Program-made: the position numbers and the translations under genes
The notes under the pieces: generated by a model
Database searches by the model: none
What the model was told of the DNA's origin: nothing
The model's input: only the letters and a program-made list of their open reading frames with translations
Part shown: piece by piece, positions 63 to 62,446 of the stretch
Layout of the letters: each line of letters opens with the position of its first letter
Numbering within the stretch: the stretch's first letter is position 1
Assembly (NCBI GenBank): GCA_015069165.1
Contig: SVJD01000001.1
Location: 57,485-121,484, forward strand
DNA length: 64,000 bases
Direction of reading: 5' to 3'
Origin: Oscillospiraceae bacterium
GTDB lineage: Bacteria > Bacillota > Clostridia > UBA1212 > UBA1255

Positions 63-977
63 TCATTCCCACAAAACTGTATCAACCACAAAACTTGTTT
101 TATATTCAGTATTGCATGCATCATAAAGAACTACTTCAACCTTCAGTTCCTGGTGCATGTTCGTTCTCTCCCGGATCACTTCACAAAAGCTATCACTTAC
201 CTTGAGGAAGAGTGTTTTTTCGGCCTGACTTTTAGCTGGCAACATAAACGGCGACTTTTCAATCAAAGTAGGAGCTTGTCTGAATTGCGTTTTGTTATCA
301 TCAATATACAGAACGGAGCTTCCTATTTTGCTATCTGAATACATCCATTTAACTGTGACCTTACTAAATACAAAAGAGTTGTCCGTATTATTCACGAAAC
401 TGATAGGAATACGTGCAAACACCTGCTTCACTCGGGATATGTCCACAATACCAATTTCAATTTTATTATTCAAAGACAAGATATCCACATAGAATCTCGT
501 TTTGTAAATTTCCTCGATATCACTTCTAAGTGCACGGAAATTATTCGCGCTCTTTCTAATGTATATATCACCTGCATGAAGACATATTTTATCTTTAAAA
601 GAATAATCTTTTGCTACAACGTATGGCTTTTGAATATTCGAACTTTTTACAATCGCCGCACCGACTCTTTTAGTTTCAATATCAAATTGCTCAATATCTA
701 TTTCGATAAACGGATCGCAATAGGTGCGAATTAATTGGTTGAGGTCTGAAATATCCGGAATGTCTTTTTCTGTTATACCAACAATCTCACGAGTGACATC
801 ACTTACTCCAAAAATAATATACTTGTCTTCCCGCGATGAGGCATTAGCAAAACTAATGATGTCTTTTATAAATTCACTTTTTTTGGCTTCGTGGTAATAC
901 TGCTGCTTAAAATCAACGGTATCGCTCTCAATACCATTTTCAATAAGCTTCGCAATTCTTTTCTGTCTTTGATTCAT
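63..977 (-). CDS. AlbA_2 / Schlafen-core (divergent AAA) domain protein
   Basis: The N-terminus reads ESDTVDFKQQ...FIKDIISFANASSREDKYIIFGVSD, which fits the PF04326 AlbA_2 pattern (E..EFK...IaAFAN..GG.L.iGV.D). It is the last gene of a 4-gene co-directional operon, and its first 12 codons overlap the upstream NUDIX gene. Confidence 0.55.
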   Translation of the reverse strand: MNQRQKRIAKLIENGIESDTVDFKQQYYHEAKKSEFIKDIISFANASSREDKYIIFGVSDVTREIVGITEKDIPDISDLNQLIRTYCDPFIEIDIEQFDIETKRVGAAIVKSSNIQKPYVVAKDYSFKDKICLHAGDIYIRKSANNFRALRSDIEEIYKTRFYVDILSLNNKIEIGIVDISRVKQVFARIPISFVNNTDNSFVFSKVTVKWMYSDSKIGSSVLYIDDNKTQFRQAPTLIEKSPFMLPAKSQAEKTLFLKVSDSFCEVIRERTNMHQELKVEVVLYDACNTEYKTSFVVDTVLWE

Positions 978-1368
978 TAGTTTCTATATCTCCTAATAGT
1001 ACTTTTAAGATTTCCTCATCTGCTGGGCAGAACTCATAGTTCGGTATCTCTCTTGGTGTGATCCATTGAATATCGTTATGTTCCGACATCTGCGGTTCGT
1101 CTTCGACAATGGTGGCATTAAACAATGTTAGATGCACCGTCAAGTCGGGATATTCGTGGACGACGTCCATAAACACGCCGCCGACAGATAGCGTCACGGC
1201 AAGTTCTTCTTGACACTCACGAATAAGCGCCTGTTCTTTTGTTTCTCCCTGCTCAACTTTGCCACCAACAAACTCCCACAGGAGCCCGCGCGCCTTGTGC
1301 GCCGGGCGTTGACAGATCATGAATTTATTGCTCTGCCAAATAAGGGCTGCTACTACTTCGGTTATCAT
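940..1368 (-). CDS. NUDIX hydrolase (MutT-like)
   Basis: A Nudix box is present: GGKVEQGETKEQALIRECQEELAV, matching GX5EX7REUXEEXGU. Its start codon overlaps the stop of the upstream helicase gene by 4 nt (ATGA-type coupling). Confidence 0.75.
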   Translation of the reverse strand: MITEVVAALIWQSNKFMICQRPAHKARGLLWEFVGGKVEQGETKEQALIRECQEELAVTLSVGGVFMDVVHEYPDLTVHLTLFNATIVEDEPQMSEHNDIQWITPREIPNYEFCPADEEILKVLLGDIETNESKTEKNCEAY

Positions 1369-3494
1369 ATTTCCTCAATGCCAATCTTCTTCAAGTATTC
1401 ATAAGTTCCATCGTAGAATTTAGGCAAGCGAGTGCTATCCTCCCAAAATCCACTTGGATTCTTATTGGGATTACCAGCAGGAACACAAATCACCATACCA
1501 GCCCTTGCTCTTGTGAGAAGAACTCGATAAGCATTGAGCATATATTTGATCTGCTCTTGTTTATTCTCAGTATCGGGTATTTTTTCATTCCACGCAGTTT
1601 TACCGTTAAATGTATAATAACGCCATTTTTCGTTATCACATCTCATATCGGCATCCCACAGCACGCAGGTATAATCAAGCTCCAAACCCTGCACCTGAAT
1701 TTCCGTTGCGGCATCTTCAAGATAGTTAGAGGCTCTTGTATCAATTTTGTCTTCAAGGAACCAGTGAACTGCATTCTCATCACCAGAGGGGAGAATGTGT
1801 ATTCCCAACGGTTTGAATCGTGCAGCTTCCTTGGTTACGAGTACGCCTGTACGTTCTGTTCCTCTGACTTTACCATGAAGCCATCTTTTTGCAGTTACCA
1901 TATCTCGTGTTAAGACAATGGGATACCTGTCCTTTATTTCATTGTACAATTCTGCTGCATCAGGATTGAAGGTGAGCAGTGAATGAACAAATGCAGAGAG
2001 TTTTTCGGCTCTGAAGGAGCGTAGAGAAACACCAAGGTGTAAATTTTCCGAATACGTAACGTTTTCGTTTTTCGCCAGCAGTTCGTTAACCTTACCTTCG
2101 GCATATTCCGGCTCTGTAAGCTTTGGAGAAATATATACTTTCCAATGTGGAAATTTGTCATTCAGTGCATTTATCCACTCTGAAATTCCCGCTTCACCGG
2201 TATTGATCTCCTGTCCACCACCTACAAGGCAGACAATAGTTGCCCAGTCCTCTCTCTGATCGAGAGACCATATCAAGAAAGCCGCCTCGGATAATGGAAA
2301 ATTGGGAACCTTCAATTTATTTCCGTATGTACCACCACGTTTTAGATAATCTGCAAGCCTTTTGTGGGTCCACGAGCGCTGCGCCTCGTCAAAAATGGCA
2401 ACGTGCTCCACTTCTCCGTAACCAGATTCTGCGAGTTTCACCGCTTTTTCGGGATCAATTTCCAAAACCCCATTTTCAACAGGATTTTTGATTTTAGCGA
2501 GCATATTATCACGATAGCGGTGGATGATTTGAATAAATTTACCTACCTCTCTGCGAGAATCGGACAGATTTTTCTTTTCGTTTCTATCACGGCATTTTTG
2601 ATGATTATCTTTTGCAAGAGCTTCGGTAAGTACCGCAACCAAAGGACCATTTCCCGAAAGATATACTGCGCCTTCGTCTTCAACAGGAGCGTCATTTCCC
2701 TGATAGGTTTGCTTTACAGCAACATCGAGCCCGACAAGCGTTTTCCCTGCACCGGGGACACCAGTAACGAAGCAAATGCTTTTTTCTCCGTTTGTCTTGC
2801 TTCTTTGTATTACGTCAAGTATGTATTTAATTGTTGTATCAGTTGAAACCTTATCCGCTTCGTGCCTCGTGATATTCTCAACTGAATGACTCTCGTATAA
2901 CGTTTTTGCAGCCTCAACAATAGTCGGCGTGGGTGCATAAGGACTGATAATCCAATCGTTATGAACCGGGAGTTCGCTCGGAAACTTATTCAACACATTT
3001 TCGATCAAAACAGATATCCCTGCTTTTCCGGTAACCAACGGATTTATTACCATGTCGTCATACACCGACATTTGAATAGAGGTGCTGCGATTAGAATAAT
3101 TTGTAGCAACCAAAATGGGAGCGATAACTTTGTCCTCGCTAAATTTGTGGAAGTTTTTCAGATCCAAAGCATAATCCAAAACTTGGTCAATATTAGATTC
3201 GAGAATTTTTGACTCGCCAACCTTAAATTCAAGGCAAAACACAATGCCGCAATAAAGGAGAACAACGTCAATTCTTTTACCGAGTCTCGGTATATCATAT
3301 TCAAAAACTATTTGGCCATTGGCATCACAAAGACTCGAAACCACGTTCTTCATGATTTCAATTTCAGCCTTCCACGCATCTCTTGTCGTGGTTAAAGCTT
3401 CACCGTGATAATTGTCGTCCAATATTCTGTATATAGAATCCGAGTCTGTATCTAAAAATGTTGCGAAATCGCTATTATACAAGCAGCGTGCCAT
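1365..3494 (-). CDS. Mrr-like PD-(D/E)xK nuclease fused to DUF2075 SF1 helicase
   Basis: The N-terminal nuclease motif is ...IDVVLL...CLEFKVG (D-x-n-E-x-K). The central region has Walker A GVPGAGKT and Walker B/DEAQ (IFDEAQ), as in the DUF2075/AAA_30 Schlafen-type helicase. An AAGGAG ribosome-binding site lies 9 nt upstream of the ATG. Confidence 0.65.
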   Translation of the reverse strand: MARCLYNSDFATFLDTDSDSIYRILDDNYHGEALTTTRDAWKAEIEIMKNVVSSLCDANGQIVFEYDIPRLGKRIDVVLLYCGIVFCLEFKVGESKILESNIDQVLDYALDLKNFHKFSEDKVIAPILVATNYSNRSTSIQMSVYDDMVINPLVTGKAGISVLIENVLNKFPSELPVHNDWIISPYAPTPTIVEAAKTLYESHSVENITRHEADKVSTDTTIKYILDVIQRSKTNGEKSICFVTGVPGAGKTLVGLDVAVKQTYQGNDAPVEDEGAVYLSGNGPLVAVLTEALAKDNHQKCRDRNEKKNLSDSRREVGKFIQIIHRYRDNMLAKIKNPVENGVLEIDPEKAVKLAESGYGEVEHVAIFDEAQRSWTHKRLADYLKRGGTYGNKLKVPNFPLSEAAFLIWSLDQREDWATIVCLVGGGQEINTGEAGISEWINALNDKFPHWKVYISPKLTEPEYAEGKVNELLAKNENVTYSENLHLGVSLRSFRAEKLSAFVHSLLTFNPDAAELYNEIKDRYPIVLTRDMVTAKRWLHGKVRGTERTGVLVTKEAARFKPLGIHILPSGDENAVHWFLEDKIDTRASNYLEDAATEIQVQGLELDYTCVLWDADMRCDNEKWRYYTFNGKTAWNEKIPDTENKQEQIKYMLNAYRVLLTRARAGMVICVPAGNPNKNPSGFWEDSTRLPKFYDGTYEYLKKIGIEEI

Positions 3495-41075: not shown

Positions 41076-41398
41076 TTTTGAAAACCCCTTTCAAATTGTG
41101 TAAATATAATAAATTTTTGTAACAAAAAAACGTTTCCATCTCGTTGTTACTACAAAGAGACGAAAACGTTAAAAAAAACTAAATTTCCGCGGTACCACTC
41201 TTCTTCATCCAAAACAGGATGCACCTTAGATGCTATCACATCTTAACTCTGTTACGGGAGTTCCCGTCTGCCACTACTTAAACTTTCATGTCAGCCGCTC
41301 CGCGGTGAGTTCAGCAAAATTCTCACAGTGTCTTGCACCATCCGACACCTCTCTGTTAGTAAAGCATATTGCATACTACTCCGCATCTTCGCGTTTAC
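41076..41398 (-). promoter_or_regulatory. T-box riboswitch leader (with promoter TTGACA at 41429-41434 and intrinsic terminator about 41121-41170)
   Basis: On the minus strand the AGAGAGG GA-motif is followed by the T-box sequence AGAGTGGTACCGCGG (plus-strand CCGCGGTACCACT at 41187-41199). After that comes a 14-bp terminator helix AACGTTTTCGTCTC/GAGATGGAAACGTT plus U7, and then an AAAGGGG ribosome-binding site. Confidence 0.7.
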
Positions 41399-41441: not shown

Positions 41442-41873
41442 TTACAATTTACATACATCAGCTTCCGTTACAATTTTAAAACCTGCATTCGAAAGAACGT
41501 TTTCTGCGGCTTTGTTATCTTCTACACGGACAACAACGTAAGCGTGTTTTTCAGTACGGGTCATAAAAGCGTACAAATATTCCATATTGATTTTGTTTTC
41601 ATCAAGAACTTTCAATGCCTCAGAAAGTTTGCCGGGTTCATCACTGATTTTTACACCGACAACATCGGTTATCTTTATAAGATATCCTGCTTCATTAAGA
41701 ATTCTTTCGGCCATTGTCTCATTGTCAACAATCAAACGCAAAATACCAAACTCCTGAGTTTCTGCAATTGAAAGTGCTCTGAGATTAATATTGTGTTTTG
41801 AAAGAGTTTCTGTAATTGAAACTATTGATCCTTGTTTGTTTTCAACAAATACAGTTAATTGCTTAATTGCCAT
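41442..41873 (-). CDS. ACT-domain protein (pairs with PaaK-like ligase)
   Basis: The 143-aa protein has two ACT-like halves. Confidence 0.55.
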   Translation of the reverse strand: MAIKQLTVFVENKQGSIVSITETLSKHNINLRALSIAETQEFGILRLIVDNETMAERILNEAGYLIKITDVVGVKISDEPGKLSEALKVLDENKINMEYLYAFMTRTEKHAYVVVRVEDNKAAENVLSNAGFKIVTEADVCKL

Positions 41874-41894
41874 AATAAATTCCCCTTTCTGATA

Positions 41895-43202
41895 TTACAC
41901 AAGTTTTCTCTTATCAATAACGCGGACAGCTTTACCTTCACTTCTTGCAATGCTTTTCGGTGCTACAAGATGAACAGCAGGATTGATGCCGAGCATGGCT
42001 TTCATTGCATTTGCAAGAGCTTTTTCCATAGAAAGAATTTCGCTGAGTTTATCGGTGAACTTTTCAGGTGTCATTTCAACGTTAACTTCAAATGTATCGG
42101 TATTTTTAACACGGTCTACAACAATCTGATAGTTTGGCTGATAACCTTCACTTAAAAGAACTGTTTCTATTTGACTCGGGAATACATTAACTCCGCGAAT
42201 AATAAGCATGTCATCTGTTCTTCCCATAGGTTTTGCCATTTTCACAAGAGTTCTGCCACAAGAACACTTTTTACGTGAAAGAACACAAATATCACGTGTG
42301 CGGTAACGCAAAAGCGGAAACGCTTCCTTATCGAGTGAAGTGAACACAAGCTCACCTTTACTTCCTTCGGGAAGTACTTCACCTGTATCAGGATCGATAA
42401 TCTCGGCATAGAAGTGGTCTTCATTTATATGCATGCCTGTTTGCTCGCTACACTCAAATGCAACTCCCGGACCGGTTGTTTCCGTCAGACCGTATATATC
42501 GTAAGCTTTAATTCCGAGTGTTTCTTCAATACTGCGGCGCATTTCCTCTGTCCAAGGCTCTGCACCGAAAATTCCAGCTTTTAGCGGAATATCTTCAGGT
42601 TTATATCCTTGCTCTTTCAATGTTTCACCGATATAAGCGGCATAAGATGGTGTACAGCAAATAATTGATGCACTAAGATCCATCATGAACTGGATTTGTC
42701 TTTCTGTATTACCTGATGACATAGGAAGTGTCAAACAACCAACCTTATGTGAGCCACCGTTAAGACCGGGACCTCCTGTGAATAAGCCGTAACCGTATGC
42801 AACCTGACAAACATCTTTTTTAGTTCCGCCTGCTGCAGTAATTGCACGTGCGCAACAATCTTCCCAAAGGTCAATATCGTGTTGTGTGTAAAAAGCAACA
42901 ACACGTCTGCCTGTTGTACCTGATGTTGACTGAATACGAACACAATCCTCAAGGGGTTTTGCTAAAAGTCCATATGGATATGCATCTCTCAAATCGGCTT
43001 TTGAGATAAACGGAAGTTTGTGCAAGTCATCAATACCTTTGATATCTTCAGGTTTTACACCTTTCTCGTCCATAAGATTACGGTAATACGGTACATTTTC
43101 ATATACGTGTTTTACCTGCTTAACGAGTTTTTCTGATTGAAGTTTTTTCATATCTTCAATCGGCATTGTTTCAATTTCTTTTTGATAATAGTTTTGTGCC
43201 AT
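41895..43202 (-). CDS. Phenylacetate-CoA ligase family (PaaK-like aryl-CoA ligase)
   Basis: The protein is PaaK-like throughout (QSTSGTTGRRVV, YGLTE). The start was trimmed to MAQNYYQKEIETM, which has an AGGGTGG ribosome-binding site. Confidence 0.7.
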   Translation of the reverse strand: MAQNYYQKEIETMPIEDMKKLQSEKLVKQVKHVYENVPYYRNLMDEKGVKPEDIKGIDDLHKLPFISKADLRDAYPYGLLAKPLEDCVRIQSTSGTTGRRVVAFYTQHDIDLWEDCCARAITAAGGTKKDVCQVAYGYGLFTGGPGLNGGSHKVGCLTLPMSSGNTERQIQFMMDLSASIICCTPSYAAYIGETLKEQGYKPEDIPLKAGIFGAEPWTEEMRRSIEETLGIKAYDIYGLTETTGPGVAFECSEQTGMHINEDHFYAEIIDPDTGEVLPEGSKGELVFTSLDKEAFPLLRYRTRDICVLSRKKCSCGRTLVKMAKPMGRTDDMLIIRGVNVFPSQIETVLLSEGYQPNYQIVVDRVKNTDTFEVNVEMTPEKFTDKLSEILSMEKALANAMKAMLGINPAVHLVAPKSIARSEGKAVRVIDKRKLV

Positions 43203-43565
43203 TTTGACCACCCTTTCTTTTTGCTTACGGAGTGAGAAAAGCAATAAAAAACGCCCTCCGCATTCCGATAAAGAATACAGAGGACGAGAAAATCAATAAT
43301 CCCGTGGTACCACCTCAGTTCGCTGTCATCTCACAACAACAGCCTTGTCAGGTACTATCATACCTTAGTTCTATAACGGGAACACCCGTTGCATCCTACT
43401 TAAGAAAAAAACTTGTTCAGCGCACTGCTAACAGAATGAATTCGAGAAGGACGTAAACTTTGCCTCGCACCAACCGGCAACTCTCTCCAGAATCGTTCCG
43501 ACCTACTGGTTTCTGATCATCGCATTTAGTTTCAATTACACACAAAAGTTAAACACAACTTTCAT
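43203..43565 (-). promoter_or_regulatory. T-box riboswitch leader 2 (promoter TTGACT...TATATAAT at about 43571-43610 on the minus strand)
   Basis: On the minus strand a short Stem I (AGAGAG, UUGCC, loop, GGCAA, AGUUUACGU) is followed by the T-box GAGGTGGTACCACGGG (plus-strand CCCGTGGTACCACCTC at 43301-43316). Then comes a terminator CGTCCTCTG...CGGAGGGCG plus U6, about 35 nt before the start codon. Confidence 0.65.
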
Positions 43566-43611
43566 GTGTTGACATTATATATCACTCAAATAAAAAAAGT
43601 CAATATATTTT

Positions 43612-59321: not shown

Positions 59322-61058
59322 ATGGCAACGCCAATTATTATGCCCCGTCAGGGCCAATCAGTTGAAAGCTGTATTATTTCTAATTGGGCCAAGAAAGTTG
59401 GAGACAAAGTTGCAGTAGGCGACACATTATTCACTTATGAAACCGACAAAGCTACGTTCGACGAAGAAGCAAAAGTTGAAGGTACTATGTTGGTTCATTT
59501 TTTTGATGAAGGTGACGATGTTCCTTGTCTTACAAACGTTTGCGTTATCGGTAACGACGGCGAAGACTTTTCTGCATTTTCTCCCAACGGTGCTGTAGCT
59601 GCTCCCGCTGCAGTAGAAGCACCTGCTGCCCCCGCTGCACCTGCAGCTCCTGTTGCTGCCGCACCTGCTCCTGCAGCTCCGGTAGGATCCAAATCAAATG
59701 CAAATCCTGTTATTATGCCCCGTCAGGGACAATCAGTTGAAAGCTGCATTATTTCAAAGTGGAATGTTAAAGTAGGCGATCAAGTTAAAGTCGGCGACAA
59801 TCTTTTCACTTATGAAACAGACAAAGCTACATTTGATGAAGAATCAAAATTCGAAGGAACAGTTCTTGCAATCTTCTTCGCTGAAGGCGATGACGTTCCT
59901 TGCCTTACAAATGTTTGCGTTATCGGTGCTCCCAATGACACTTTTGCAGAGTTCGATCCTAACGCATCAGCAGCACCTGTTGAAGCTGCTCCCGCTACTG
60001 CAGAAGCGCCCGTAGCTCAAGCTCCGGTTGCACAAGCAGCTGCTCCCGCTCCCGTAGTAAACAACGAGGGCAAAATATTTATTTCACCCAGAGCTAAAAA
60101 TTGTGCTGAAAGAGCCGGCGTTAATCCCGCATTCATCGCAGGTACAGGCCCTTACGGCAGAATTATTGAAAGCGACGTTAAAAACTTCATCGCAGCCGGC
60201 GGTAATACTACATACGCAGCAAGCGGTGTTGCACAAGCTGACATGAACGCTACAGGTTTCGCAGGAAAAATTTCCGTTGCAGACCTTAACGCTCCTAAAG
60301 CTCCCGCAGAAGCTGCTCCTTCAGTTGCTCCTGTTGCAGAAGCTCCTAAGAGCGATGCTGATTTCGAAGATGTTAAGATTCCGAATATCCGTAAAGTTAT
60401 TTCCAAATCAATGCATGCTTCCCTTTCAACAATGGCTCAGCTCACACTCAACGCTTCTTTCGATGCAACAAATATCCTTGCATTCAGAAAACAGCTTAAA
60501 GAGAACAAAGACAAGCTCGGTCTTAACAACATCACAATCAACGACATTATCATCTACGCTGTATCAAGAACAATTCTTGCTCACAAAGATCTTAATGCAA
60601 ACTTCATTAACGATGGTACAACAATGCGTTACTTCAAAAACGCACACATCGGTGTTGCTGTTGATACTCCCAGAGGTCTTATGGTTCCCACAGTGATGGA
60701 TGCTAACCTTAAATCACTCAATGATATTTCCGCAGAGGCTAAAAAGCTCGCAACAGATGCTCAGGCAGGAACAATCAACCCTGACCTTCTCAAAGGCGGC
60801 ACATTTACAATTACAAACCTCGGTACAATGGGAATTGAGTCATTTACACCTGTTATCAATCCTCCTCAAACAGGAATTCTCGGTGTTAATACTCTTGAAA
60901 CACGCGTTAAAAATGTTAACGGTGAGATGAAAATGTATCAAGCAATGACACTTTCTCTTACATTCGACCACAGAGCATTGGACGGCGCTCCGGCTGCCAG
61001 ATTCCTCCAAGACCTCTGCAAGAATCTTGAGAATTTCACAATGCTTTTGATTAAATAA
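59322..61058 (+). CDS. 2-oxo acid dehydrogenase E2 (dihydrolipoamide acetyltransferase) with two lipoyl domains
   Basis: Two xETDKA lipoyl-lysine motifs are present, joined by Ala/Pro-rich linkers. A peripheral subunit-binding domain follows, and the catalytic DHRxxDG motif appears as TFDHRALDGA. Confidence 0.85.
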   Translation: MATPIIMPRQGQSVESCIISNWAKKVGDKVAVGDTLFTYETDKATFDEEAKVEGTMLVHFFDEGDDVPCLTNVCVIGNDGEDFSAFSPNGAVAAPAAVEAPAAPAAPAAPVAAAPAPAAPVGSKSNANPVIMPRQGQSVESCIISKWNVKVGDQVKVGDNLFTYETDKATFDEESKFEGTVLAIFFAEGDDVPCLTNVCVIGAPNDTFAEFDPNASAAPVEAAPATAEAPVAQAPVAQAAAPAPVVNNEGKIFISPRAKNCAERAGVNPAFIAGTGPYGRIIESDVKNFIAAGGNTTYAASGVAQADMNATGFAGKISVADLNAPKAPAEAAPSVAPVAEAPKSDADFEDVKIPNIRKVISKSMHASLSTMAQLTLNASFDATNILAFRKQLKENKDKLGLNNITINDIIIYAVSRTILAHKDLNANFINDGTTMRYFKNAHIGVAVDTPRGLMVPTVMDANLKSLNDISAEAKKLATDAQAGTINPDLLKGGTFTITNLGTMGIESFTPVINPPQTGILGVNTLETRVKNVNGEMKMYQAMTLSLTFDHRALDGAPAARFLQDLCKNLENFTMLLIK

Positions 61059-61075
61059 GAAAGAGGTGCATTTAC

Positions 61076-62446
61076 ATGGTATATGATTTAATCGTTATCG
61101 GTGGCGGACCGGCCGGATATCTTGCAGCAGAGCGCGCAGGACATGCAGGCCTCAACACACTCCTTATCGAGAAAAGATTTATCGGCGGTGTTTGCCTTAA
61201 TGAAGGTTGTATTCCTTCAAAAGCTCTTCTCTACTCCGCTAAAATCTTTGACGGTGCTGCTCACGGCGAGAAATACGGTGTTTCCGTAAAAGACATTAAA
61301 CTCGACCACAATTTCGTAGTTGAGCGTAAAAACAAAGTTGTTAACACTCTCGTTAGCGGTATCAAATCAAAACTCAAAAAGAACAAAGTTACTGTTGTTA
61401 TGGCAGAAGGTAAAATTGCAGGCAGAACAGCTGAAGGTTTCAATGTTACTGCAGGCGACCAGACATACACAGGCGCTAAACTCTTAATAGCTACAGGTTC
61501 AGTACCTGTAACTCCTCCGATTCCCGGTGTTAAAGAAGGACTTGAGTCAGGTTTCGTAGTAACAAACCGCGAAATCCTTGACCTCAAAGAAGTTCCTGAG
61601 AAATTCACAATTATCGGCGGCGGCGTTATCGGTCTCGAAATGGCATCATACTTCAATACAGCAGGTTCAAAAGTTACTGTTATTGAAATGATGGACAAAA
61701 TCGCAGGACCTACTGACAGAGAAATCTCTGAAATACTCCTCAAAAACTACCAGAAAAAAGGTATTACTTTCAATCTCGGTTGTAAAGTTGTTGGGGTTGA
61801 GCCCGGTAAAGTTCTCTATGAGCTCGAAGGCAAAACATACGAAGTTCCCTCTGATAAAGTTCTTCTCAGTATCGGCAGACGTGCTTTCACAGAAGGTCTC
61901 GGACTCGAAACAATCGGTGTTGAAACTGAAAGAGGAAAAATCAAAACTGATAACAAAGGACGCACAAACATTGCCGGTGTTTATGCTACAGGTGACGTTA
62001 ACGGTTATTCAATGCTTGCACACACAGCATACCGTGAAACAGAAGTAGCTATTAACGATATTCTCGGCATTAAGGATACAATGCGTTACAATGCTATCCC
62101 TTCTGTAATTTACACTAACCCTGAAGTTGCAGGTGTTGGCGAAACAGAAGAAACAGCAAAAGCTAAAGGTATTGATTATGAGGTAGCTAAACTTTCAATG
62201 ATGTACTCAGGCAGATACGTTGCTGAAAATGAAGGCGGAGATGGTATCATCAAAGTTCTCATTAACAAGAAATACAGAAACGTTATCGGCGTACACATGA
62301 TTGGTAACTATTCTTCAGAGATTATATACGGTGCAGGTATCATGATTGAAACAGAAATGCCTGTTAAAGATATCAAAAAGCTCGTATTCCCTCACCCTTC
62401 AGTATGCGAAGTAATTCGTGAAGGTATTTTCGAATTTAACGACTAA
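61076..62446 (+). CDS. lpd: Dihydrolipoyl dehydrogenase (E3)
   Basis: The FAD site is GGGPAGY, the redox disulfide is GGVCLNEGCIPSK, and the C-terminal HPS motif is HPSVCE. Confidence 0.9.
   Translation: MVYDLIVIGGGPAGYLAAERAGHAGLNTLLIEKRFIGGVCLNEGCIPSKALLYSAKIFDGAAHGEKYGVSVKDIKLDHNFVVERKNKVVNTLVSGIKSKLKKNKVTVVMAEGKIAGRTAEGFNVTAGDQTYTGAKLLIATGSVPVTPPIPGVKEGLESGFVVTNREILDLKEVPEKFTIIGGGVIGLEMASYFNTAGSKVTVIEMMDKIAGPTDREISEILLKNYQKKGITFNLGCKVVGVEPGKVLYELEGKTYEVPSDKVLLSIGRRAFTEGLGLETIGVETERGKIKTDNKGRTNIAGVYATGDVNGYSMLAHTAYRETEVAINDILGIKDTMRYNAIPSVIYTNPEVAGVGETEETAKAKGIDYEVAKLSMMYSGRYVAENEGGDGIIKVLINKKYRNVIGVHMIGNYSSEIIYGAGIMIETEMPVKDIKKLVFPHPSVCEVIREGIFEFND

Follow-up and report, generated by a model that had tools for sequence, protein, structure and literature searches.

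A predicted phenylalanine T-box riboswitch ahead of a PaaK-family ligase and an ACT-domain protein in an Oscillospiraceae bacterium

T-box riboswitches of the Rfam family RF00230, among them the phenylalanine (Phe) UUC leader of pheS-pheT and the leader of Bacillus subtilis tyrS, are assembled from a recurrent set of parts. Stem I carries a K-turn, a Specifier Loop with an AGUA/GAA S-turn and an AG bulge with a distal loop, and is followed by Stems II, IIA/B and III, an antiterminator with a UGGN bulge and a competing intrinsic terminator. They control aminoacyl-tRNA synthetase genes, classical biosynthetic operons or transporter genes, and in every case with an experimentally verified function the specifier agreed with what the regulated gene does (Wels et al. 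2008, PMC2494555). Here we describe a leader with all of these parts in a 64,000-nucleotide (nt) stretch of contig SVJD01000001.1 from an Oscillospiraceae bacterium, the whole of which we call the window. Unlike the known cases, its targets are a predicted arylacetate-coenzyme A (CoA) ligase of the PaaK family and an ACT-domain protein. The riboswitch is an ordinary member of its family, and the new element is its apparently unreported target. Window coordinates are positions in this stretch, and the elements of the Phe T-box unit lie on its minus strand.

The two genes recall three described systems. Catabolic PaaK genes lie in paa operons under protein repressors that sense phenylacetyl-CoA. 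The aerobic catabolon enzymes of Escherichia coli and Burkholderia cenocepacia (PaaK1/PaaK2; 2Y27, 2Y4N, 2Y4O) belong to the same family as the window ligase over their full length and start phenylacetate degradation, whereas the window locus has no paa ring-oxidation genes nearby and is predicted to be controlled by Phe starvation. A second precedent is chemical. Methanococcus maripaludis reportedly uses aryl acids and indolepyruvate/arylpyruvate:ferredoxin oxidoreductase (IOR) on a route to aromatic amino acids, and Allison is said to have described reductive carboxylation of phenylacetate to Phe in rumen bacteria in the 1960s. The chemistry that we propose is the same, from arylacetate to aryl-acetyl-CoA, to arylpyruvate with reduced ferredoxin and CO2, and to the amino acid. 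That route was defined by physiology and genetics and without tRNA-sensing control, whereas the window case rests on regulation and synteny. Phe synthesis from phenylacetate in the rumen is cited in PMC7356843, and 2-oxoacid oxidoreductases running in reverse, in the biosynthetic direction, in methanogens are cited in PMC13285125.

The closest gene clusters come from Bacteroides, where iorA-iorB-ligase loci (represented by PDB 4R1L and 2F06) contain the same ligase family and the same ACT-pair family as the window. The ligase adjoining a Bacteroides IOR has been assayed as an arylacetate-CoA ligase, the direction in which the IOR-ligase cluster runs is under discussion, and T-box control of such clusters is not described there (PMC13285125). 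The iorAB-ligase-ACT arrangement also occurs in most of the Clostridia relatives that we fetched. In the window, by contrast, iorAB is not next to the ligase-ACT pair, which carries a promoter and a Phe T-box of its own.

The leader is a full-length match to the T-box family. Scanning the whole window with the RF00230 covariance model in cmscan returned two T-box leaders, both on the minus strand. The match studied here (E = 2.7e-21) covers model positions 1-219 without truncation; the other, at 41398..41153, scores 125 bits and precedes a neighbouring operon described below. An earlier note on this DNA had read a T-box and a terminator upstream of a PaaK-type ligase and an ACT protein, and the covariance-model score, the terminator and the domain matches of both proteins bear this out. 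The T-box sequence quoted in that note, GAGGTGGTACCACGGG, maps to 43316..43301.

Orthologous leaders conserve both the sequence and the fold of the switch. We fetched 80 genome loci with ligase orthologues 80-94% identical to the window ligase, all from metagenome-assembled genomes labelled Acutalibacteraceae, Oscillospiraceae, Ruminococcus sp. or Clostridia and mostly originating from ruminant guts. A T-box core lies 80-150 nt upstream of paaK in 34 of the 80, and Rfam confirmed every leader scanned (L006, L007, L008, L009, L010, L017, L019, L021, L023, L047, L054 and L075). Aligning these 34 leaders with that of the window gave alignment A1 (n = 35). Within its GAAUUC segment the G, both As, the first U and the C never vary and a single leader departs from the middle U, so that 34 of 35 read UUC; the UGGU bulge of the antiterminator is found in all 35. 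TG-extended -10 boxes stand in the orthologous leaders at the position equivalent to the window promoter.

Base pairing was counted over A1 for one named structure, because RNAalifold, when given the whole alignment, left the base of Stem I unpaired and introduced a spurious long-range helix. The named structure is paired in 98.8% of cells, against 35-61% when partners are slid by 1-3 columns, and none of 500 shuffles attains its observed pairing or covariation. Its basal helix is 100% paired, with compensatory changes in three of five pairs (A-U to G-C and G-C to A-U), and the distal stem of Stem I is 95% paired with four compensatory pairs. Separate support for Stems II, IIA/B and III and for the terminator, likewise with compensatory changes, comes from RNAalifold on A1.

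The 3' half of the leader holds two competing helices. Both antiterminator helices are 100% paired in the 35-leader alignment, with two compensatory pairs, and the UGGU of the bulge is complementary to a tRNA 3' end reading ACCA, that is, to discriminator A73. The terminator hairpin folds at -28.3 kcal/mol (z = -3.1), and none of 200 shuffles folds as well. The stretch 43286..43280 belongs both to the 5' strand of this hairpin and to the antiterminator's 3' strand, so that the two helices are mutually exclusive. The terminator helix is kept in the orthologous leaders with compensatory pairs, as found by RNAalifold.

Stem I is complete and contains a Specifier Loop of standard geometry. At its base CAGAA (43515..43511) pairs with UUCUG (43436..43432), and the K-turn is formed by GCGAUGA and UUAGC. 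Farther out, the AG bulge AGAGAG (43486..43481) leads into the distal stem UUGCC/GGCAA, which closes an 11-nt loop, GGUUGGUGCGA (stem and loop together at 43480..43460). The earlier note had called Stem I unusually short; the pieces it quoted, AGAGAG, UUGCC and GGCAA, are the AG bulge and the distal stem-loop, and the K-turn, basal helix and Specifier Loop lie outside them. Nor do its candidate specifiers, UAC(G) and UUU(A), hold: they fall in AGUUUACGU (43459..43451), on the 3' strand of distal Stem I. This stretch varies freely across the 34 orthologous leaders, where its counterpart reads AGAGGGAGU, AGCGGGCGU and others, and we rejected both candidates.

The predicted specifier is instead UUC, and the predicted signal Phe. 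The Specifier Loop consists of a 5' strand ACCAGUA and a 3' strand GAA-UUC-A, 7/7 nt. The same 7/7 geometry is found in the neighbouring leucine (Leu) T-box of the window (AGUAGUA / GAA-CUC-A) and in tyrosine (Tyr) T-boxes of loci L007 and L017 (GAA-UAC-A) and L152 (GAA-UAC-C). The register is fixed by the covarying basal helix beneath the Specifier Loop and by the Rfam alignment, which places UUC in the specifier position. An aromatic amino acid as the signal had been anticipated and stands; Tyr or tryptophan, which had also been considered, is not supported for the window leader.

A shift of the register by one base would turn the specifier into UCA or UCC and make the operon answer serine (Ser) starvation. 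Two features of the alignment could be taken that way. The base after UUC alternates between A (20 leaders) and C (15 leaders), as a wobble position would, and the A-U pair closing the loop (43511/43436) is invariant and so unproven by covariation. Against the shift, cmscan puts UUC-A in the specifier slot, the UUC reading yields the loop geometry common to the Leu T-box next door and the three Tyr T-boxes, and UCA or UCC would be followed by U, never by a purine. The regulated gene, moreover, is an arylacetate ligase. The discriminator base of tRNA-Phe is A73, and that of bacterial tRNA-Ser and tRNA-Trp is G73. The UGGU of all 35 leaders matches an A73 tRNA, which makes a Ser register unlikely and points to Phe as the signal. 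Loop geometry, the lack of a following purine and the fit of UGGU to an A73 tRNA led us to reject the Ser register, which we regard as extremely improbable.

We also weighed whether the leader might be a decaying or non-functional T-box remnant, with paaK-ACT expressed constitutively or controlled in some other way. Its Rfam score lies only 9 bits over the threshold, upper Stem I contains non-canonical pairs, the 3' strand of the K-turn, UUAGC, departs from the GAGC consensus, and Stem I, folded alone from a single sequence, reaches a minimum free energy no lower than that of shuffled sequence (z = +1.3). A poor minimum-free-energy fold is expected, however, because T-box Stem I is rich in non-Watson-Crick motifs. 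The window and the 34 orthologous leaders, which come from different species, retain every functional element, and compensatory changes occur in Stems I, II and III as well as in the antiterminator and terminator. A remnant therefore seems very unlikely to us. Judged from its sequence and conservation, the leader is a real and canonical T-box riboswitch, for which tRNA-dependent read-through is predicted from family membership. The coordinates of the unit are collected in Table 1.

Table 1. Elements of the Phe T-box-paaK-ACT unit in the window
Feature	Position	Strand	Basis
Sigma-70-type promoter, TTGACT-18 nt-TATAAT	43574..43603	-	11 of 12 consensus matches
T-box leader (RF00230), full length	43277..43529	-	cmscan, 101.7 bits against a gathering score of 93
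Stem I, ~97 nt, full length	43427..43523	-	cmscan and 35-leader alignment
Specifier Loop 3' strand GAA-UUC-A; UUC (Phe) at 43440..43438, next purine A at 43437	43437..43443	-	cmscan alignment
Antiterminator: GAGG, bulge UGGUACC (43312..43306), ACGGG, loop, CUCGU, CCUC	43280..43316	-	cmscan and pairing count
Intrinsic terminator, 15 bp, loop of 5; hairpin 43286..43252 followed by T6	43246..43286	-	Folding and shuffles
paaK-family arylacetate (phenylacetate)-CoA ligase (putative), 435 amino acids; ribosome-binding site GAAAGGGUGG upstream	41895..43202	-	Hidden Markov model match and PDB homologues
ACT-domain pair protein, 143 amino acids, own ribosome-binding site	41442..41873	-	PF19571 ACT_8

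The first gene encodes an enzyme with the architecture of PaaK, an AMP-binding domain (PF00501) followed by AMP-binding_C_2 (PF14535). Its best-scoring family is the PaaK equivalog TIGR02155, to which it aligns end to end (query residues 12-433, the query having one extra N-terminal residue, on model positions 1-422). It matches solved PaaK enzymes over its whole length, at 420 bits for 2Y27 (B. cenocepacia PaaK1), 416 bits for 2Y4O (PaaK2 of that species) and 407 bits for 4R1L, itself a phenylacetate-CoA ligase. Close relatives are named phenylacetate--CoA ligase by NCBI, and the exact protein is recorded in four JGI metagenomes, one copy lying on a 166,784-nt contig. We infer that it is a PaaK-family arylacetate-CoA ligase and, from its homology to the solved PaaK enzymes, that phenylacetate is the substrate.

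The second gene begins 21 nt past the paaK stop codon and encodes an ACT pair. Its product matches ACT_8 (PF19571) at 94.8 bits against a threshold of 23.5, over model positions 1-139 of 141, and PDB 2F06 at 88 bits (E = 3.5e-24). An ACT gene follows paaK in 152 of 160 related loci. This constant co-occurrence with paaK suggests that the protein probably works together with the ligase or the oxidoreductase and senses a small molecule (an amino acid).

We consider it likely that this unit is a Phe-specific, transcription-attenuating T-box that induces PaaK-ACT for Phe supply from phenylacetate. The standard T-box mechanism is the best reading because the parts of the leader are the standard ones. 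When tRNA-Phe(GAA) is mostly uncharged, its anticodon would pair with UUC in the Stem I Specifier Loop, and the UGGU of the T-box bulge would capture the free ACCA at its 3' end. The antiterminator would then be stabilised over the overlapping terminator, and RNA polymerase would enter paaK-ACT. By homology to solved PaaK enzymes, the ligase would convert phenylacetate, ATP and CoA to phenylacetyl-CoA. An indolepyruvate/arylpyruvate:ferredoxin oxidoreductase would reductively carboxylate phenylacetyl-CoA to phenylpyruvate, a step that we draw from synteny, T-box logic and the rumen and methanogen pathway, and transamination of phenylpyruvate would yield Phe. An AMP-forming ligase induced by Phe starvation fits Phe supply, not Phe degradation.

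Related loci tie the ligase to the oxidoreductase that this pathway would use. In 85 of the 151 related loci with enough upstream sequence the gene directly upstream of paaK is iorB, and in locus L032 both subunits pass their NCBIfam equivalog cutoffs (IorA 728.7 against 650.9, IorB 276.7 against 230). Three arrangements recur. The first, which is that of the window, is a stand-alone T-box(Phe)-paaK-ACT unit. Eight of the 85 loci have acyl-CoA ligase-iorA-iorB, then a gap of ~400 nt that holds the same Phe T-box, then paaK-ACT; in several of these a promoter-like TTGAC(T/A)-spacer-TAAAAT, seen by eye in A1, precedes the leader. In the third arrangement acyl-CoA ligase-iorA-iorB abuts paaK-ACT and the T-box is absent; among the scanned loci in which iorB abuts paaK, no T-box or other riboswitch reaches the Rfam gathering score. 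Because the Phe T-box of the eight gapped loci precedes paaK only, that arrangement suggests a Phe-specific step at paaK and an iorAB that serves several substrates.

Tyr T-boxes govern related genes in other loci. A metagenome scan seeded with L075, the most distant T-box-bearing orthologue, found locus L152 (548-6726), in which a separate Tyr T-box (GAA-UAC-C, 118 bits) with its own promoter and terminator precedes a whole acyl-CoA ligase-iorA-iorB-paaK-ACT operon. In L007 (2669-4543) and L017 (2687-4565) a Tyr T-box (GAA-UAC-A) precedes a gene for a 518-amino-acid sodium:solute symporter (SSF) just upstream of the Phe-T-box-paaK-ACT unit, and this symporter is a candidate importer of Tyr or an arylacetate. 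SSF genes flank many ior-paaK operons. In loci L094, L103 and L110 (~1140-2620 in each) the gene upstream of iorA encodes not a 546-amino-acid AMP-binding ligase but a second, 45-46% identical PaaK paralogue, which suggests two arylacetate ligases of differing specificity per operon.

The main competing account accepts the Phe T-box and gives PaaK-ACT another role: activation of a different aromatic or aliphatic acid, or formation of phenylacetyl-CoA for another end, be it detoxification, CoA transfer in a cycle of Phe fermentation, or the making of a secondary metabolite. It can point to the equivalog score of the ligase, which is below the cutoff, to the lack of an IOR within the roughly 82 kb examined, to the 66 of 151 related loci in which paaK is not next to iorB, and to the reported activity of the Bacteroides thetaiotaomicron IOR in conversion of Phe to phenylacetate (PMC13285125). 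Induction by uncharged tRNA-Phe, however, suits a role in raising Phe supply, in keeping with the general pattern of T-box regulons (PMC2494555), and AMP-forming ligases have been argued to favour thioester formation and the biosynthetic direction (PMC13285125). The frequent iorAB linkage and the separate Tyr T-box on the whole L152 operon likewise argue for aromatic amino-acid supply. We judge a role other than Phe synthesis unlikely.

Several findings weigh against induction of PaaK-ACT for Phe supply as we propose it. The ligase scores 533.9 bits against TIGR02155, below the cutoff of 646.3. No IOR, other 2-oxoacid:ferredoxin oxidoreductase or aminotransferase was found in the 64-kb window or in the 10 kb past either end. 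The leader of L006 is the sole exception to the UUC specifier, with UGC in its place. Fifteen of the 35 paaK leaders carry C directly after the specifier instead of the usual purine of RF00230 T-boxes, so that the purine rule holds for the window and not for the whole clade. Finally, T-box control is confined to one clade: where PaaK shares at least 88% identity with that of the window, 25 of 27 loci have the T-box, against only 2 of 107 at 85% or less, and most slightly more distant orthologues have no T-box. The proposal of the earlier note, that arylacetates are turned into aromatic amino acids by reductive carboxylation, has indirect support from the iorAB linkage in 85 of 151 loci and from the Tyr T-boxes elsewhere, and the lack of an IOR in the window and its 10-kb flanks leaves it a prediction for this genome.

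The paaK leader of L006 (4655-4905) reads GAA-UGC-C, a cysteine codon, and retains UGGU; the UGC may be an error of sequencing or assembly, or it may mark a switch that is decaying or has changed its specificity. In L152, too, C directly follows the specifier of the Tyr T-box.

If the unit works as we propose, it bears on a debate about gut metabolism. iorAB-paaK clusters are very common in gut and rumen anaerobes, and the direction in which they run is debated. In the degradative view they convert Phe to phenylacetate, the precursor of host phenylacetylglutamine; in the synthetic view they make Phe from phenylacetate, as was shown physiologically in rumen bacteria in the 1960s. The predicted induction of the ligase by uncharged tRNA-Phe would speak, on regulatory grounds, for biosynthesis as the direction in this clade. 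T-box specifiers could also be used to assign substrates to acyl-CoA ligases of unassigned function.

The association appears to be new. No T-box linked to PaaK, IOR, F390 synthetase, an ACT domain or CoA ligases was found in full-text searches of the literature or in two genome-wide T-box surveys and their supplements, a scope outside which lie TBDB and RegPrecise, which may catalogue the association. The claim that a link between T-boxes and the PaaK pathway was unreported agrees with these searches, within the reach of the literature that can be searched.

Other amino-acid T-boxes near paaK-ACT also precede acyl-CoA ligases. The Leu T-box of the window, with specifier GAA-CUC-A, drives an operon that reaches 35355. 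Its genes encode a 462-amino-acid LeuA-like protein (HMGL-like and LeuA_dimer) that scores far under the LeuA equivalog cutoffs, an 829-amino-acid fusion of a xylose-isomerase-like TIM barrel with an acyl-CoA ligase (PRK12583-like), a MaoC dehydratase, and an ACT plus metallo-beta-lactamase protein. A LeuA-like gene and the TIM-barrel-ligase fusion, with a T-box of 124-128 bits, also lie beside paaK-ACT in L006, L008 and L047; the specifier was read in L008 only, where it is CUG (Leu). The operon could be a Leu-related acid-salvage or alternative route. In L009 (1-2546) and L012 (5121-2497, minus strand) an isoleucine (Ile) T-box with specifier AUC stands before a 766-771-amino-acid HTH_3-Cupin_2-AMP-binding acyl-CoA ligase fusion, again beside paaK-ACT. 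This fusion is a candidate 2-methylbutyrate-activating enzyme under Ile control. Locus L008 also has a glycine riboswitch (2825-2916, 57 bits) ~2 kb upstream of its paaK T-box.

Because Leu and Ile T-boxes precede acyl-CoA ligases near paaK-ACT, alongside the Phe and Tyr cases, a wider acid-salvage network suggests itself. We put forward tentatively, as a possibility that we hold with less than even confidence, that ruminant-gut Oscillospirales use a T-box network responding to Phe, Tyr, Leu and Ile to induce AMP-forming acid-CoA ligases, which would feed fermentation acids into reductive carboxylation and so recover from each acid its corresponding amino acid. The pattern suggests as members PaaK-ACT for Phe, the L152 operon and the L007/L017 symporter for Tyr, the LeuA-like and TIM-barrel-ligase genes for Leu, and the HTH-cupin-ligase fusion for Ile. 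If such a network exists, specifier codons would reveal the acid substrates of ligases that could not otherwise be assigned one, and the network would explain at the level of genes why rumen bacteria classically require phenylacetate and branched-chain volatile fatty acids.

Two further regions of the window lie away from the Phe T-box unit. From 59322..62446 and on (locus L168, 8247-13872) there is a 2-oxoacid dehydrogenase complex, with an E2 bearing lipoyl domains, an E3 and a fused E1 of 823 amino acids, which looks notable for an apparently strictly anaerobic gut Clostridium. At the left end of the window, 63..3494 and locus L165 encode SLFN/AlbA_2, a Schlafen-group-3-like helicase, NUDIX, a D12 methyltransferase, DUF87 and DUF4365, a cluster that looks like a defence island.

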